A stretch of 64,000 nucleotides of DNA from Mobula birostris (Eukaryota), in the NCBI RefSeq assembly GCF_030028105.1, contig NC_092370.1:232854005-232918004 (forward strand). Direction: 5' to 3'. The position numbers and the translations under genes were made by a program. The notes beneath the pieces are model-generated. The model was not told the origin of the DNA, made no database searches, and worked only from the letters and a program-made list of their open reading frames with translations. Numbering within the stretch: position 1 is the stretch's first letter; each line of letters opens with the position of its first letter. Below are positions 25,601-49,456 of the stretch, in pieces.

Positions 25601-28600
25601 ATTTTTTTCGGCCAGATCCTTCCCTACTTTCAGCACAAAATAGTATCAAGAGACCTGCTGTCACTGGTTTGAAAATTTTTTCAATATTTTCTTAAGCGTA
25701 TTCAAAAATGTATGTACAAAAGGCAACATGTTGTTCTCTGAGTAGACCCTTTCAAAGTTTTGTGCTCAGAAGTATATTTTCATTTTTCAAATAATCTTTA
25801 CAGCTAACCTGCAGGAGTCAGTATAAAAAGATCAGTAAAGTGATGTATAGAGGCTGCAGTGGAGGAACTATCTAAATAAAAACATTCAATTTTAAAATAG
25901 CAACTTAAAATGTGTAATGGATGACTGTCTTGTTTAACATCTTGAATGTGTTTCAAGGCTATGCAAATATGCCTTTCAGAGATAGTATCACAGCTGCAGA
26001 AAGGGCAAATGCCGTGGAGTGATCGCATACTTAGTGTGGGTGGAAGTCAGGAATTGGAAGAGACCAATTAGTCTAATTAGGAGTGCTTCCCCCCCCCCCC
26101 CCCAGTAGAAACAGAGACACTGAGAAGCAGATTGGGAGACAGATTTTGGAAAAGTGCAAAGATAAGTGTTGTTGTCATGGGTAACTTCATCTTCCCTAAT
26201 ATTAATTGAGACCTCCTTAAACAGGTTTTATTGAGATAGAATTTGTTGGGTGTGTCCATCAAGGATGGCAGGATTCTTAGCATGTGGAGCAACAGAAAGA
26301 TTTTGGGGTCCAAGTCCATTGTTCCCTCAAAATTACCACACGTAGTTAAGAAGACCTTTGTTAATCAGTGGATTGAGTTCAAGAGTGTCAAGATAATGTT
26401 GCAGCTCTATGAAACTGTAACTCTTGGGAGTACTGATTCGGTCTTTCTTTTTCTACCTCCAGGATTTTGGCGATGGAGGCGCATTTCCAGAGATCCATAT
26501 GGCACAGTTTCCATTGGACATGGGCCGCAAGAAGAAATCATCCAATGCCCTGCCGGTTCAGGTGGACGCAGAGGGGAAGATCAAATTTGATGCCATTGCC
26601 AGACAAGGACAGTCAAAGGACAAGGTACAGTCGACCTTCACTAATCCAACTACCTGTAATCTGGTTCCTTTGATAATCCAGCACTGATTTCAAATTTTCC
26701 GTGCAACTGTAATTTCAAATTTCCCGGGCCACCATACCAATCTGCTGCGCATTGTTTTGGTTGCACTAGATCTGTTCACATGTTGGCGCGCTCTTGTAAG
26801 CACAGACAGGCGATTTCTGCTTGTTTTCCTGCATTTATTAATATCAATGGCCTTTTATTGGCCCCAATTATGACCCCAGTGAGTAAAGGAAATGCACTTG
26901 GTGCTGTGAAGCGAAAACACCGCACATTATCCATTAAAGATAAGGTTGAACTCTTGAAAAAACTGGACAGTGGTGTATCGATGAAAAGCTTGTGCGAGTG
27001 TTACAACATTGGCTCTTCCACAGTGGACGATATAAGGAAACAGAAAGGAAAACTGCTACATTTTTTTGCTGATAGTGGCTGAAAGAAACATTTGCGTAAG
27101 AAAAACAATGAAAGATGGAAGAAGTTCAGAACTAGATAAAGTGCTGATAATGTTTAATCTTCGTGTAAGTGAAGGTGTTGAACTATCTGGAGATATGGTG
27201 AAGGAACAAGCAAAAGTGTTTCATGAAGAACGAGGACTAGATTATGAGTGTGACTATAGTGAAGGCTGGCTTCATCAGTTCAAGCAGCGTCATGGCTTAT
27301 GGTGTTGTGCAGTGTGTGGTGAAAAACATTCAGCAGACAAGGAAGCAACAGCAGAGTTTGTTGACGAGTTCGCCAAGTTAGTCTCCGATGAAAAATTAAG
27401 CTCCGGGCAGGTGTACAATGCTGATGAGACTGCTTTGTATTGGAGATGTACACCAAGAAAAACACTAACAACAGCAGATGCAGAATCGCCAACAGGGTAT
27501 AAGGCAATTTCCTGTAATTTACCGTGCTAACAAAATGTTGATGATCCTGACAACCCCACACTTGCAGACATGTAACTTTACCTGAAGGTATATTAAAGGT
27601 CTCACTTTAGAAGCGGGAGAGCTCAACTTTTCTGTATAAGTTAATTCCCGTACATTTGCCTGTACCCTTTATTTTATCTGTGCCTGTACAGTATATTACT
27701 TTATCAAAATTTCACTTGCTACTCATTTGAACCCTGGAGCATATCCTCAGTGGCTGTGCAAGAGCACTTGGTGAGGGACGGTACAGGTGGAGGCATGATC
27801 AGGTCCTGAAGACCATCGCTGAAGCCGTCAGCAAAGGAGTTGAGTGGGCGAAGCGGTCTCGACCCTCCAAGCAGACCATTGCCTTTGTCAGAGCTGGGGA
27901 GCAGCCAATACCTGCCAAAAGAACATCTGCAGGCATCCTGACCTCTGCAAGGGACTGGCAGCTGTTGGTGGACCTCGAAGGGCAGCTGAAGTTCCCCAAC
28001 CATATCGCAGCCACCACCCCACAACCAGACATTGTCCTAGTGTCTGAGTCTACTAAGCAAGTGGTGCTGCTGGAGCTGACAGTCCCATGGGAAGATAGCT
28101 TGGAGGAGGCCTTTGAAAGGAAGCTCTCCAAGTACGCAGGACTGGTCAGCAACTGTCAGCAGGCTGAATGGAGAGCGAGGTGTCTCCCAGTGGAGGTTGG
28201 TTGTAGGGGATTCATAGCCCGTTCTTTAGTTAGAGCCTTCAGCATTTTGGGCACCGAGGGAGAGAGGAAGAGGAGAGCCATCCGCAGTACCACCGATGCG
28301 GCAGAGAGGGCCTCAAGGTGGCTGTGGCTCAAAAGAGGGGAGCCATGGAGTCATAAGTAGCTAGCCATCTGGACACAAGCTGGGGTCTGATCAGCCCCGG
28401 CTGGGGTCACCTGGAGGAGGTTGTATGATGTTGAAAGACCCAAAACACCCGATGATTCCAGGAACATCACTGAAGATTTGTCCAGAAGCATCAATAGATG
28501 TATGTATACGGTAATATCTCTGTTTCATTATTATCTAACTTGTACTGATTTACATGATATTTTTAAGGTATGATGAGGTGGTTAGCTATTGCTTAATGTG

Positions 28601-31600
28601 ATCCTTCTGTAATTCGCCATTTTCACTAATCCGGCACTCCTCAGGTCCCAATGGCGCCAGATTAGTGAAGGTAGACCTGTAGAGTAATTTCCATCTGATT
28701 CTTATCTGCAGATGTGTTATGCTACTTTGTTTTCTACTTCCATCATCAGATGGGCTGAGTGAGGAATACCTTCCTTACGCCTGGTCCAGAATTCTAACTC
28801 GTATTTTGGGTAGATAACTTTTTATTAAGTTATACAATAGTTGTCAAGATGGTGAGGATGTAATGTGTAATTCAGAAAATTTGGCTTTACAGACTTACAA
28901 TGTTCATCAACGTTTGTTTCTCTTCAGGTTATTTACAGCAAGTTTACAGATCTTATTCCTAAAGAAGTTATAAATGAAGATGACCCAGATCTGCAGAGGC
29001 CTGATGAAGACAGTATAAAGGAGGTAAACTACTTATAATTCTACAAATGTGTAGGTATGACATAAGGAATGTTTCTGATTTGACGATATTATTGAATTCA
29101 AGGAGATACTGGAGATTTGAAAAGAAGAGTAAGCTTGTGCTTGGAGAGAGTCCAGAGGAGGCTCACTAGAATGATCCTGGTGATGAAAGGGTTAATGCCT
29201 GTGAAGTGTTTGATGGCTCTGGGCCTGTACTCGCAGGAGTTTAGAAGAATAAGCAGGGATCTCATTGAAACCTATTGAATAATGAAAGACCTTGATAGAA
29301 TGGATGTGGAGAGGATGTTTCCTATAGTGGATGAGTATAGGACCAGAGGGCACAGTCTTAAAATAGAAGGATGTCCCTTTATAACAGAGATGAGGAATTT
29401 CTTTAGCCAGAGGGTGGTGAATCTGTGGAATTCGTTCTCACATGCAGCGGTGGGGCCAGATCATTGGGTATATTTAAGCAGAAGTTTATAGCTTCTTAAT
29501 TAGTAGGGGTGTCAAGGGTAATGAAGAGAAGACAGGAGAATGAGGTTGAGAGGGACATTAAATCAGCCATAATTGAATGGTGGAGCAGACTCAATGGCCT
29601 AAATCTGCTACAATGTCTTATTGCCTTGTAGAACATAAGGACAGTGCAACATATGGACAGACCCTCCAGACCATGCCAATTTAAACTGCACATCTGCCTG
29701 CATGTGGTCTATATCTCTCAATTCCTTGCCTGTGTGTGTGTCCTTCCAAATGACTCTTCAATATTGCTTTCACCATTCTCTGGCAGTGCGGGACTAGCCA
29801 TTTCTCTGACTTTATACAAAAGCTGTTGAAAAATACTGGAATTTGCATAACATTTTCTGTACACCAGACGATTCTTAGAGGATGCAGCTGAATTGACTGT
29901 AGTGTTCCCAAAAGTCAGTTAATGAACAAGCTGTTTTCACATACAAGATGATTTATGGGAGAAATAAGTCTTCAAAGGGTTGAGCTACAGGCCAAACCCT
30001 TTAAACATATCTTGCATGTTTTGTTGTGGGAATGGATATTTTCTTCCCTGCACATGTCCATCAGACAGATTAATTGATTGTTTCTTCTGTTTTTCATGAA
30101 GAAATTAGTGTACAGATTTTCTGCCGTGTTTCTGAATAACAATTTGTACTACACAGAAATTTTTTTAAAAATTTTGAAGACATTTTACAGACATTCAGGC
30201 AATTTGAAAGTTTCATGTTTTTAGACATAACAGGAATGTGGGGATGACAAAGTAGATTTCATGGTGTCTTACTCCCTTCATGCCAAAGGTTATGACATTT
30301 CTAAATAAAAGGAGATTCTTTTATTCAGGTGCATTAACTCTGGTTCTGTTTGTGTGATGAATTCTGTACAATATCTTGGAGGATTTTATAATACATGGAC
30401 TTCTAAAGTATACACATGCCAAAGTATGTCACGTTCTTTGGGAGATTTCAGCATTATAAATCATGCATACTTTAGTCACACAGAAAGGAAGATCATGTAC
30501 TGTAATAAAGTTGACTTGTATTGCCTTATGTTCCACACATGTGCTTTGTGAGTGGTTGAGTCTGGGTTGATTGACTCAGAGAGACAGTAGTAGGTAGATG
30601 TGCAAGTTAGCCTTGTAGATTGAATGTTCTTCAATAGTAACCAATAATAATGATGTAGAGGTACAAATCATTATGTATACAACATTCCAGCTTTGATTCC
30701 CACTGTGAAATAATGTTAGATTGCAGGGTTTGTGATGTCTCTTGAAGTTAAATAGCTCACTGGTATTCATAGCAAGTTTTCACGTCTGGATGTTTGGTGG
30801 TGTTTAAGAATGACAAAGAACTGTGTGCTAGGTGAAATGAAGGGAGGGAAAGGCTTTTCAGTGCGGAGTGATGTTAAAATGTCCCTCAGTATTACTGCTG
30901 ATCCGGTACAGCAAAAGTAATGTGAGTGTTATCTGTGGAAACAAAACTGAAATGTTGGTAGAGTCAGAAGAAGTACTCTTTAATTGAGGGTACGATTACA
31001 TTCTTCCACTGGGAATAAGCAACGCCATAATATTGTGTGACATGGTGTTTCTAACACCTGTGTTTAAAGACTAATACATTTTGACAGTTGACTTTGTCTT
31101 GGGTAAGATGGCCTGTGAATCCTTGAAAATTAAGATTGTAAGTAGAGGTTGTGTGGTATGTTGACCATAGGCAGTCCAGAGGTAATGCATTTTAATTTGC
31201 TAAACTGACTATTGTTTCATTACAGTTGACTGAAAAGACGCGTTCAGCTCTTGAGAAACAAGTCTCACAGAAGGTTGCAGCAGCCATGCCTGTTCGAGCA
31301 GCTGAGAAACTAGCCCCTGCACAGTACATCAGGTTAGAAGAGTCACACAAGCAGTGGTGATATTTTGATGTCTAATTTGTTTTTCTAATGCATGCTGCAT
31401 CTTAATGAGGTTCAGCATGTAGTGCTTTGGATATATCGTTTTGATTACACTTCATATAATAATCTTAGCTTGTCTGTCAAGAGCAACACACAAAAATTGC
31501 TGGAGGAACTCAGTAGGTCAGGCAACATCTGTGGAGGGAATAAACAGTCAACGTTTTGGGCTGAGATCCTATCAGGACTGGAAAGGAAGAGGAAAGAAGC

Positions 31601-46600: not shown

Positions 46601-49456
46601 AGAGCTGGCAGGGACTTGATGGGTGGTCAATATCTTATACATCTTCATTATATCCCAAAGTTCTTTCCACCTAATGAAATAGTTTTGAATTGTGAACAAT
46701 ACTTGTTTAAATAGACTCTGGTCTATAACTTGAATTTCTGCACATGGTGCCTGGTGAATTCAACATATAAGTAATTAAAACTTGCTTGAATACCAGGTTC
46801 AAACAGCAGAAGGATCAGGATCGAGATATCAGTGAGCTGATTGCACTGGGTGTACCACATCAACATGTATCATCTGAACTAGCCTATGACCAAAGACTCT
46901 TCAACCAGAACAAGGTAAAATAATGTGGTCAATGCAAAGGAGTTACATAGCTTGATTTATGCAATAGTTTTCCTCATTCCTTAAAAAAATAAAACTAGCT
47001 GTCGCTGGTATTTGCTTTCCCAAATCTTACTTAACATTATTAAACCACTATAATGTGCTGTATGTACAATCCAGGTATTCCATCTGGAAAATATAGATCA
47101 CAATTCAACAAATCTGCTGAAAAGGTCATTTCTCTATAATGAACAGGGAAAGCAAAAACCAAATAATATTGCCACCCAGCCTATGGGGGAGCAAAATAGT
47201 CACACTTTATACAATGTGGCAAGATATTAATGATCTTGATATGCCACCTCAAATTACTCATTAACCCCAGCAAGTGGACCTCACATACTTGTGATTCGAA
47301 CCAGATTATGAAAGTTGTTTCTCATTAGAAAAGTACTGAGCAAAATACTTCAGAAGCCTCATATCATAGATGAATCTACGTAGAGCTTTCAGTGATAAAA
47401 TTGTTTTCTGTTGAGGGCTAAATGACCCATTTATAAACCTGTTAAGCTTTTATTTTTTTTTTGGGCTGCAGTATGGGACTGGATCTCAAAATTAAGATGC
47501 TTAAAGCAGTTCCTATCTGCATCCTGTGGAAAGTAAATTGAGTGAACCTCGTATTTTTAATTTAAAAGAAACTTGAAAATTGAGTCATAGCCCAGAAACA
47601 GGCTGTTTGGCCCATCTAGTCCAAATCAAACTATTAACCTTCCCAGTGTCATTAACCTGCACCCAATCCATAGTACTCCATGTACCTATCCAGACCTCAC
47701 ATAAATTTTGAAATTGAATATGCTTCTGCTGGCAGCTCGTTCAACACTCACCACCCTCTGAGAAAAGTTCCCCTGCATGTTTCACCCTTAACCCATGACT
47801 TCTAGTTTTAATCTCGCTAGGAGCAACTGGATTCTCTGGTTTAAACCATTGATGAGCAGTAATGATGCAGCTGATATTTTTGCAGGGCATGGACAGTGGC
47901 TTTGCAGGTGGAGAGGACGAACTTTACAATGTTTATGACCAGCCATGGAGAGCTGGCAAAGACATGGCACAAAGTGTGTACAGACCAACCAAAAATGCTG
48001 ATAAAGACACCTATGGTGATGATTTGGACACATTTATGAAAAACAACCGGTAAGTAACTCACAGTAGCATTCTTTTTTGCCTTACCTCATTTTTTTTTTA
48101 AACCTGTTGACTTGTCTGTTATAAATACTCCTTCATTCTGCAAAGTAAATTTTAAATCATCCAAAACTAGGCTGAGAGTGTATCTTCCTTCAAGATGTTG
48201 TAATATATGTTGTTCTAATTCTTGGGCATTCAGCTTTTAATCTCCAGTTGTGGCTTCAACTGTTAGATAGTAAGCCTCTAAATTCTCCCTAAGTCTCTCC
48301 CCAGGATGCTCCTATAAATTTATCAAAATATAAACAAATCATATATCAAACAGCACAGGAACTTGCCCTTCAGCCCATGTGCCAAATCAATCAAATTAGT
48401 AATCAGATTGCCAACTAATCTCTTTTGCCTGTACAATGTCCATATCCTTCCATTCTCCTCACATATGTGCCTACCTAAATGCCTCTTAAAAGTCCCTAAT
48501 GTACTTAGCATACCAGGCACTCAACACTCTGTATAAAAACACTTGCTTCTCGCTTCTCCTTTGAAATTACTCCCTCTCACTTTAAATGCATGCCTCTGGT
48601 ATTAGACATTTCAACCCTGGGAAAAATATATTACTTGCCTACTGTATCAGATCCGCCACTCCAGAGAAAACAACCCAAGTTTGCCCAACCTCTCATTATA
48701 GATCATACCCTTTAATCCAGGTAGCATCCTGGTAAACCTCTTCTGCACCTTCTCCAAAGCCTCTATATCCTTCCTATAATGGAGCAACCAGAACTGTATG
48801 CAGTACTCCAGATGCAGCCTAACTAGAATTCTCTAAAACAGCAACATAATCCTCAACAAATTAATAGCTGTCCAAAGAAAGTTAACGTTTTCAAATCATC
48901 GATCTTTCATGAGAATAACTACTAACTATGGTTTCTCTTTTGAGAGGATTGGTGTCACTGCTCTTGTGCAATACAATTTGTTGCTTTGGAAATGTGCCTT
49001 AAGAACAATTAAGGTTTAGACAGTAAAAAAAAAATTCTAAAACATTTGTATAATTAACTCATTTTACTGTAAATCTTGGCATGAGTAAGTTTGGCAGAAG
49101 CCTCTTGTGTAGATGTAGCTTCTCAATGGAAATAAAGTTTCAACTCTAATGTTTTCTTCAATACCATTTGCTTACATTGATTGAATCACTTGTGCACAAC
49201 TAGTTTTGAGAATTATCCCACAAAATATAAATTAATTGTCATTTTCTTTTTTAGGTTTGTCCCTGACAGGGAATTTTCTGGTACAGACCGCAAACAGCGT
49301 CGTGAAGGCCCTGTTCAGTTTGAGAGGGATGAAGAAGATCCCTTCGGGCTGGATAAGTTCTTGGAGGAAGCCAAGCAACATGGTGGTTCAAAGAGACCTG
49401 AAAGTGGCCGTTCAAAAGAATACGAACATGAGGGAAAGAAGCGAAGAAAGGAATAG
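19589..49456 (+). CDS. SNW1: SNW domain-containing protein 1 (SKIP/Prp45 spliceosomal factor), 14 coding exons, 537 aa
   Basis: Joined exons 19589-19602, 23875-24028, 26463-26624, 28928-29023, 31226-31332, 34568-34672, 35828-35897, 38026-38091, 39906-40022, 40151-40292, 43015-43111, 46797-46914, 47886-48049, 49255-49456 give 1614 nt. All introns are GT-AG with consistent phases. The translation MALTSFLPAPTQLSQDQLE...[29 protein letters not shown]...EGKKRRKE matches vertebrate SNW1, including the SNW motif. Confidence 0.98.
22320..22650 (+). mobile_element. Rex1/Babar 3' fragment
   Basis: IESILSGCVTAWYGNC ... GRKYKSLK..SRLKESFYP. Confidence 0.7.
22760..22965 (-). repeat. V-SINE/HE1-like SINE
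   Basis: tttggactgtgggaggaaa...ggaaaccca core. Confidence 0.65.
23875..24028 (+). CDS. SNW1: SNW1 exon 2
   Basis: ttttcaag|..FLPAPTQLSQDQLEADEKARAQRARQTALVASRREPPPYGHRKGWIPRSLE|gtacat. Confidence 0.97.
26463..26624 (+). CDS. SNW1: SNW1 exon 3
   Basis: ctccag|DFGDGGAFPEIHMAQFPLDMGRKKKSSNALPVQVDAEGKIKFDAIARQGQSKDK|gtacag. Confidence 0.97.
26628..28679 (+). mobile_element. Tigger/pogo DNA transposon (Jerky/TIGD-like transposase remnant), internally deleted, with a nested HERO fragment
   Basis: TA TSDs at 26626-26627 and 28680-28681; TIRs CAGTCGACCTTCACTAATC / GATTAGTGAAGGTAGACCTG; HTH KRKHRTLSIKDKVELL, CENP-B HTH SEGWLHQFKQRHG, and DDE start VYNADETALYW. Confidence 0.9.
27731..28500 (+). mobile_element. 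HERO-clade (R2 group) non-LTR retrotransposon 3' fragment encoding a restriction-like endonuclease
   Basis: Open frame 27731-28360: LEHILSGC...RYRWRHDQVL...PDIVLVSESTKQVVLLELTVPWE...KLSKY...PVEVGCRGF (PD-(D/E)xK RLE domain). Confidence 0.85.
28928..29023 (+). CDS. SNW1: SNW1 exon 4
   Basis: cttcag|VIYSKFTDLIPKEVINEDDPDLQRPDEDSIKE|gtaaac. Confidence 0.97.
29135..29630 (+). mobile_element. CR1 3' fragment
   Basis: RTRGHSLKI...[14 protein letters not shown] plus CR1 3' UTR. Confidence 0.8.
31226..31332 (+). CDS. SNW1: SNW1 exon 5
   Basis: ttacag|LTEKTRSALEKQVSQKVAAAMPVRAAEKLAPAQYIR|gttaga. Confidence 0.97.
31480..32070 (-). mobile_element. Older Penelope 3' fragment (GIY-YIG C-terminus plus pseudo-LTR)
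   Basis: PVATHFNS...KLEEQHFIFCLRSLQ followed by the pLTR-type tail. Confidence 0.75.
32930..33290 (-). repeat. RTE-type SINE-like element with (ATG)n tail
   Basis: catcatcatcat tail; gaagtggtttaccattgcc segment typical of RTE 3' ends. Confidence 0.45.
33655..33915 (+). repeat. V-SINE/HE1-like SINE
   Basis: tRNA-like head tagcgtagcagttagcg...gagttcaact, followed by V-like core. Confidence 0.6.
34568..34672 (+). CDS. SNW1: SNW1 exon 6
   Basis: atgcag|YTPSQQGVAFNSGAKQRVIRMVEMQKDPMEPPRFK|gtaagt. Confidence 0.97.
34985..35310 (+). mobile_element. CR1 3' end fragment (same family)
   Basis: RGHSFKVLGSRYRGDVRGRFFTQRVV plus tail. Confidence 0.85.
35470..35755 (-). repeat. tRNA-derived V-SINE/HE1-like SINE
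   Basis: V-domain-like gggtttTcaccgggtgctctgatttcctctcagtccaaagac; tRNA-like A/B-box head. Confidence 0.7.
35828..35897 (+). CDS. SNW1: SNW1 exon 7
   Basis: gtttag|INKKIPRGPPSPPAPVMHSPSRK|gtagga. Confidence 0.97.
38026..38091 (+). CDS. SNW1: SNW1 exon 8 (SNW motif)
   Basis: tttcag|[22 protein letters not shown]|gtaaag. Confidence 0.97.
39142..39677 (+). mobile_element. Non-autonomous Tc1-like element
   Basis: TA TSDs (39140-39141, 39678-39679); TIRs CATTCAGTGGCCACTTTATTAGGTAC / GTACCAAATAAAGTGGCCACTGTGTG; internal TIR copy near 39620; Tc1 transposase remnant. Confidence 0.85.
39906..40022 (+). CDS. SNW1: SNW1 exon 9
   Basis: ttacag|[39 protein letters not shown]|gtatct. Confidence 0.97.
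40151..40292 (+). CDS. SNW1: SNW1 exon 10
   Basis: ccttag|AREAVEMRAQVERKMAQKEKEKKEEKLRELAQIARERRAGIKTHIEK|gtagga. Confidence 0.97.
40622..40702. mobile_element. Small hAT-like MITE
   Basis: Termini CAGTGGTTCCTAACC ... GGTTGGGAACCCCTC. Confidence 0.55.
41190..41800 (+). mobile_element. Short Penelope derivative: inverted pLTR end, GIY-YIG C-terminus, then pLTR
   Basis: ttcatattctgtctaggtagcctccaacctgatgg matches the PLE C-terminus; the termini are inverted repeats. Confidence 0.7.
43015..43111 (+). CDS. SNW1: SNW1 exon 11
   Basis: ccccag|EENETRERDEIRHERRKDRQHDRNLARAAPDRR|gtatgt. Confidence 0.96.
43400..45300 (+). mobile_element. Highly decayed ancient LINE relic (CR1/Jockey-group-like)
   Basis: Residual APE- and RT-like segments (..DFN.H..W; LAKLFQY..NTGIY); many stops; interrupted by a SINE. 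Confidence 0.4.
45351..45385 (+). ncRNA. Degenerate hammerhead motif in a pLTR fragment (SNW1 intron 11, sense)
   Basis: AGTC CTGATGA A GGGT TCA GCTC GAAA TG TT GGCT; stems maintained by G-U pairs. Confidence 0.5.
45850..46110 (-). repeat. V-SINE/HE1-like SINE
   Basis: Same family as 35470-35755. Confidence 0.65.
46797..46914 (+). CDS. SNW1: SNW1 exon 12
   Basis: taccag|FKQQKDQDRDISELIALGVPHQHVSSELAYDQRLFNQNK|gtaaaa. Confidence 0.94.
47886..48049 (+). CDS. SNW1: SNW1 exon 13
   Basis: ttgcag|GMDSGFAGGEDELYNVYDQPWRAGKDMAQSVYRPTKNADKDTYGDDLDTFMKNNR|gtaagt. Confidence 0.97.
48350..48855 (-). mobile_element. Degenerate CR1 3' fragment
   Basis: Similar to the 3' region of the other CR1 copies. 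Confidence 0.65.
49255..49456 (+). CDS. SNW1: SNW1 exon 14 (terminal, C-terminal NLS KKRRKE)
   Basis: ttttag|FVPDREFSGTDRKQRREGPVQFERDEEDPFGLDKFLEEAKQHGGSKRP...EGKKRRKE-TAG. Confidence 0.97.

Follow-up and report, generated by a model that had tools for sequence, protein, structure and literature searches.

A transposon end now forms most of the splice donor, from position +4 on, of exon 3 of SNW1, an essential splicing gene, in Mobula birostris. The analysis concerns 64,000 nucleotides (nt) of contig NC_092370.1 (forward strand, 232,854,005 to 232,918,004), hereafter the window, in which positions are counted from its first letter. The element is a Tigger/pogo-type DNA transposon and its insertion into the TA at positions +2/+3 of the donor is confirmed. 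The resulting donor, AAG/GTACAGT (the slash marks the exon-intron border), is used in splicing, the insertion occurs in three species, and three other organisms read AAG/GTACAAT at the same place. We favor, with a probability of about 0.7, the reading in which Tigger inserted at the donor TA, its end supplied the donor from +4 onward and the exon continued to be spliced there, likely because AG/GTA donors depend little on +4 to +7 and because the CAGT end nearly copied the letters that it displaced.

Insertion site and use of the rebuilt donor

SNW1 is intact within the window. It is covered by 13 tblastn blocks (23861-49453), which are closer to shark and skate proteins than to those of lungfish or frog, and its exon 3 has a single match in the genome. 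The donor GT lies at 26625-26626 and intron 3 starts with GTACAGTCG. The element that follows has short terminal inverted repeats (TIRs) beginning with CAG, whose arms (26630-26646 and 28660-28676) match at 94% over 17 nt. In other copies of the family a TA adjoins the left end at 41 of 46 sites and the right end at 36 of 39; this recurrence identifies the two TAs listed in Table 1 as the target-site duplication. The orthologues without the element carry a single TA at the site, consistent with duplication of the TA. A first look at the family returned 1,037 left-end and 1,555 right-end candidates (40 of each were scored), numbers that are not to be read as copy numbers. CENP-B_N and HTH_Tnp_Tc5 domains are found within the SNW1 copy, in a broken coding region, while DDE_1, found in a full-length relative of 2,418 bp (L062), is deleted from it. 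Tigger is classed under Mariner/Tc1 (PMC5753468).

In a run labelled 'RNA?' that comes from this species, a contig of depth 433.5 joins 26624 to 28928 (GT..AG) and spans exons 2-3-4-5. This junction shows that the TIR-built donor is used; minor isoforms may exist beside it, since contigs lose rare forms and 47 joints of the run are unlisted. A sequence-only reading of the window had placed a Tigger in this TA, with its TIR supplying the donor from +4 onward in a form that still works. The TA borders of the family, the coordinates and the RNA contig bear out these three points.

Table 1. Positions in the window of the SNW1 exon-3 donor, the inserted elements and the surrounding gene parts.
Feature	Position	Strand	Basis or remark
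SNW1 exon 3	26463-26624	+	ends AAG; joined to exon 4 in transcript contig
Working donor AAG/GTACAGT	26622-26631	+	-3 to +3 host, +4 to +7 TIR-derived
Left TA target-site copy	26626-26627		donor positions +2/+3
Left TIR, short (CAGT) form	26628-26647	+	inverted arms, family comparison
Tigger/pogo left part, broken transposase start	26628-27728	+	CENP-B_N, HTH_Tnp_Tc5; stop at about 27080
Nested 5'-truncated non-LTR retrotransposon	27729-28511	+	3' end of reverse transcriptase, CCHC-knuckle, restriction-like-endonuclease open reading frame
Tigger right part; its TIR at about 28660-28679	28512-28679	+	inverted arms, full-length copies
GTAGAGT relic	28679-28685	+	TIR G, TA and displaced old +4 to +7; exonic side CCT
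Right TA target-site copy	28680-28681		TA conserved beside other family copies
Remnant of original short intron 3	28682-28927	+	alignable to empty orthologues from 28685
SNW1 exon 4	28928-29023	+	tblastn, transcript contig

The donor before the insertion

Sequencing runs were searched for the exon-dense stretch of SNW1; six further organisms (B to G) held at least half of its words and one run of each was compared. Organisms B and C carry the insertion, since their contigs cross both of its junctions, the one with exon 3 and the one with the intron remnant; it is thus common to the window species, B and C. In D the site is empty: one contig of 763 nt consists of 26400-26629, an A, and 28685-29060. 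In F and G the loose letters before 28685 give the end of the exon and then GTACAA. The readable empty sites (3/3: D, F and G) have the length of a clean pre-insertion site and all read AAG/GTACAAT, with C at +4. The contig of E stops at 28685 and is uninformative on the donor.

The sequence-only reading had rebuilt the pre-insertion donor as GTAGAGT from the letters now beside the right TA, and held that the TIR had changed +4 only. Neither point is supported, the empty orthologues already having C at +4; it had also named orthologues lacking the element and still reading GTACA... as the observation that would speak against it, and this is what they read at +4 and +5. The relic thus differs from the empty sites at two positions. 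In the stretch 28685-28776, four of the five substitutions that can be polarised are specific to the window lineage after its split from C, and so is a deletion of 16 nt at 28776-28781 relative to C, E, F and G. Changes later than the split from C postdate the insertion, when the displaced letters could drift. Since most of the local divergence is of this age, the two differences more likely arose as the relic drifted; by a rough estimate, the chance that both are older than the insertion is 4-25%, depending on the share assumed. On this basis we give GTACAAT about an even chance of being the pre-insertion donor; GTACAGT is a possible but clearly less probable candidate, and GTAGAGT an unlikely one, the remainder falling to other sequences. 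The C at +4 is likely older than the insertion, in which case the TIR changed only +6, or nothing.

Several observations weigh against this reading. Organisms D, F and G (and E) are near-identical in intron 3 and amount to about one outgroup. The polarity was read from five sites, and the distance of C from the window (38 differences in 412 nt) is similar to that of D (26 in 376). In B and C the relic letters 28682-28685 are unreadable (5 of 10 C differences are unlisted). A distant vertebrate orthologue (L138/L143, one sequence) reads AAG/GTAAAGT, which favors an ancestral G at +6. The D-G lineage may also have lost the element, via the AGT microhomology present at both ends. Finally, the RNA support for the use of the donor is a single contig of a single run ('RNA?').

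The distant orthologue came from a metagenome pattern scan for outgroups, which gave six loci, two of them SNW1 (L138 and L143) with the same sequence; a scan of prokaryote genomes gave 0 matches. L143:100-236 agrees with L138 from mid-exon 3 on, and unrelated sequence replaces the 5' part of the exon, so that L143 is either chimeric or an allele with an interruption. Intron 3 is present at the same position in this distant orthologue.

Donor class, U1 pairing and competing explanations

An insertion at this TA leaves AAG/GTA intact, whatever inserts. With AG at -2/-1 and no GURAG, the SNW1 exon-3 donor belongs to the AG//GUNNN class, defined by its pairing potential with U5 loop 1, which makes up 45.1% of human donors and also occurs in zebrafish (PMC11732430). 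It resembles that class both before and after the insertion, having AAG/GU without GURAG, and differs from the class in general in that everything from +4 onward is transposon-derived. In SNW1 itself a G at +5 is absent in 6 of the 12 mapped donors, all of them AG/GTA; the donor of intron 2, for instance, is GAG/GTACATC.

U1 duplexes were predicted with ViennaRNA against the 5' end of U1 (in kcal/mol; pseudouridine is not modelled). The present donor is predicted at -6.8 with a bulge at +4 vs -5.6 in the canonical register, and the empty-site donor GTACAAT at -5.6 in both registers, i.e. with no predicted gain from a bulge. Two other SNW1 donors score -5.7, similar to the empty site; the opposite orientation of the element would give -6.2, and GTAGAGT -8.5. 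The emphasis that the sequence-only reading put on a bulged U1 form therefore stands in part: GTACAGT does fit the +4 bulge register, but GTACAAT has no bulge gain and a conserved bulge is thus unnecessary for splicing here.

The present donor shares the GTACAGT motif of the Bulge 1 (+4) U1 register donors (PMC4856993), the bulged duplex being predicted more stable, and differs in that the predicted gain at SNW1, with C at +8, is small. File 3 of that paper (the Tan list) holds 4,270 rows of predicted non-canonical human donors, in which we made substring counts: AAGGTACAGT occurs 132 times, AAGGTAAAGT 120 times, AAGGTAGAGT 51 times, GGTACAGTC 49 times and AAGGTACAAT 0 times. Among the rows listed, those with C at +8 (G/GTACAGTC) gain only -0.4 from the bulge, which falls below the list's own threshold of -1. 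The human SNW1 exon-3 donor is absent from this list, where SNW1 has a single row, for a later exon. When five Tigger/MER TIR starts were placed after GTA, they matched 0 of its rows, and GTACAGTCG matches three, none with a recognised TIR. According to these models the present donor is of a common natural type, as good as its predecessor or slightly better, and its tolerance calls for no special mechanism.

The events may then be ordered as follows. A Tigger/pogo element would have inserted at the TA of a donor reading GTACAAT or GTACAGT, and the CAGT start of its TIR would have replaced +4 onward, altering +6 only or nothing. Splicing likely persisted, as an AG/GTA donor depends little on +4 to +7, and a G gained at +6 is predicted to add a small amount of +4-bulge U1 pairing (-1.2 kcal/mol by ViennaRNA, -0.4 in the Tan list). 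The displaced letters would have drifted to GAGT, the insertion persisting as a neutral survivor. The internal deletions and a younger long interspersed element (LINE) presumably came later, or in part before the insertion.

Another account takes GTAGAGT as the old donor: the TIR would have changed +4 only, a GUA-N-AGU bulge would have carried the donor, and GTACAAT would derive from it by two substitutions, or by excision via the AGT microhomology plus one. The relic does read GAGT, the distant orthologue has GTAAAGT, and GTAGAGT pairs well (-8.5) and occurs with AAG 51 times in the human list; the Tigger family is abundant in D too, and the age of the copy (4.2% from the family majority) is near that of the species split. 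But this account has to explain the C at +4 in all three readable empty sites and a local divergence that is mostly later than the insertion, it requires a functioning donor to have changed twice, or else an excision, and the human exon-3 donor is missing from the bulge list. We consider it quite improbable. Selection may instead have kept the insertion, the G at +6 having turned a canonical donor of five pairs into a stronger +4-bulge donor with better inclusion of exon 3. The predicted duplexes (-6.8 vs -5.6 kcal/mol), the counts of 132 for AAGGTACAGT and 0 for AAGGTACAAT and the presence of the insertion in three species agree with such an advantage. It is nevertheless improbable, as the gain in the Tan list is just -0.4 and under its threshold, three species splice with GTACAAT, judging from their intact site, and the intron grew from about 250 nt to 2,303 nt.

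The GTAGAGT at 28679 was proposed by the sequence-only reading as a potential cryptic donor, which is likely wrong. It lacks the exonic AG (CCT), its predicted U1 duplex is -3.6 kcal/mol, and no use of it is seen among the RNA contigs listed, although rare use may escape since contigs drop rare forms. We regard it as most likely a relic that has drifted and that would serve poorly as a cryptic donor. The same evidence bears on a regulated alternative, in which this relic or sites internal to the transposon would exonise the element as a poison isoform. In its favor are the presence of the motif and the sense orientation of the element; evidence against it comes from the CCT and the weak duplex of the relic, the broken transposase, and the RNA run, in which the exon-4 depth is accounted for by one normal contig and 28714-28891 has no contig coverage (with the same loss of rare forms). 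A poison isoform is thus very improbable. The insertion of Tigger into a GTACAAT or GTACAGT donor, followed by drift of the displaced letters, remains the account that we prefer.

Anatomy of the insert and search for further cases

The ends of the 2-kb Tigger of the sequence-only reading are right, but the insert is composite. Compared with full-length copies, its 2,052 bp consist of 1,269 bp of internally deleted Tigger and 783 bp of a nested retrotransposon without long terminal repeats (non-LTR). Two deletions in the Tigger part, near 27506 and 27532, removed about 1.15 kb including the DDE domain. The nested family gave 2,935 candidates, the best copies being 97% alike. A sister copy has RVT_1 upstream (E 1e-12; zf-RVT is below the cut-off), and a CCHC knuckle and PD-(D/E)xK-like endonuclease motifs were read by eye after the reverse transcriptase. 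This layout agrees with that described in PMC5678591. By its domains and motifs the nested insert is a 5'-truncated non-LTR retrotransposon with a restriction-like endonuclease. It diverges from its family majority by 2.1% (11 rows) vs 4.2% for the Tigger, both values being biased low as the copies were picked by similarity; it is younger than the Tigger. It may belong to the HERO clade. The nested family is abundant and fairly young, and occurs also in organisms B, C and D.

The left TIR of the SNW1 copy is one G shorter than the right TIR. Among 46 left ends of the family (L002-L060) the form is CAGT in 33, CAGG in 11 and unreadable in two, the share of CAGT being possibly biased by a query of the short form. 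CAGG matches the right end, and the T at +7 of the donor comes only from the CAGT form. Derivatives of the size of miniature inverted-repeat transposable elements (MITEs), about 100-155 bp, also occur (L110:1505-1606 and L111:1505-1660); such derivatives, with joints 26689 to 28590, turn up in the DNA runs of organisms B and C as well as in the RNA-type run. L110 and L111 were rejected as exons on reading by eye. Elsewhere in SNW1, the exon at 46795-46914 has 9 residues out of 40, by a count made by eye, that are not those of catshark, unlike most other internal exons (92-100% identity in tblastn blocks); no duplicate of it was found in the window.

TA makes up 6.4% of window positions, and for 1,000-3,000 copies 0.4-1.2 donor matches are expected by chance, assuming 1e5 donor TAs. 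At 19 of 59 family ends the TA follows a G. Donor-like flanks (G/GTA or AG/GTA) were collected with three exact patterns (14 + 35 + 8, with 5 overlaps) at 52 distinct family ends, of which 47 were examined including SNW1. No second case was confirmed among the 46 other ends, by tests that are weak for small exons. A filter for an acceptor and an open frame, applied to 44 ends, recovered SNW1 exon 3 and four unverified candidates (L099, L101, L103 and L119), each with an acceptor-like site and an open frame just upstream of position 1501. Pfam gave nothing at cut-off for 38 upstream frames, a weak test since Pfam misses SNW1 exon 3 too. The last three donor-like sites were checked by translation alone, and none was confirmed as an exon end. 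No precedent for a donor whose intronic half had been taken over by a TIR appeared in open-access full-text listings, which do not cover subscription articles and older work on worm and maize.

A broader proposal would be that TA-targeting transposons ending in CAGT are donor-proof, any GTA donor becoming GTACAGT and surviving or even being strengthened. A measurable share of vertebrate GTACAGT donors would then be fossil TIRs, and the old SNW1 donor would have been matched at all seven positions or upgraded. We consider this improbable.

In its TA duplication, CAG-starting TIRs, CENP-B-type helix-turn-helix and DDE_1, 2.4-kb full length, and deleted and MITE-size derivatives the family is like other Tigger/pogo elements; unlike the usual ones, the SNW1 copy sits in a splice donor. 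It also resembles introners (PMC11282704), in which TIR and target-site letters build a splice site and the insertion is harmless. But SNW1 gained no new intron: the element made an existing one longer and took over the intronic half of its donor, the acceptor being the host's, and only one such site is confirmed in its family. An introner was rejected, the intron being present without the element in D, F, G and the distant vertebrate.

The SNW1 insertion is most likely a neutral survivor and a single case. As one locus, where chance alone would give about one, it leaves general models as they are; only a genome-wide excess would alter that. It also warns that a pre-insertion site rebuilt from one genome can misread its history. 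What it offers is a dated natural experiment, in which the whole intronic context of a constitutive donor, in a spliceosome gene present as a single copy, was exchanged for transposon sequence from +4 on and kept in three species. It illustrates how few demands AG/GTA donors make on the sequence downstream, and shows a way in which transposons can remake splice sites that already exist instead of creating further ones.

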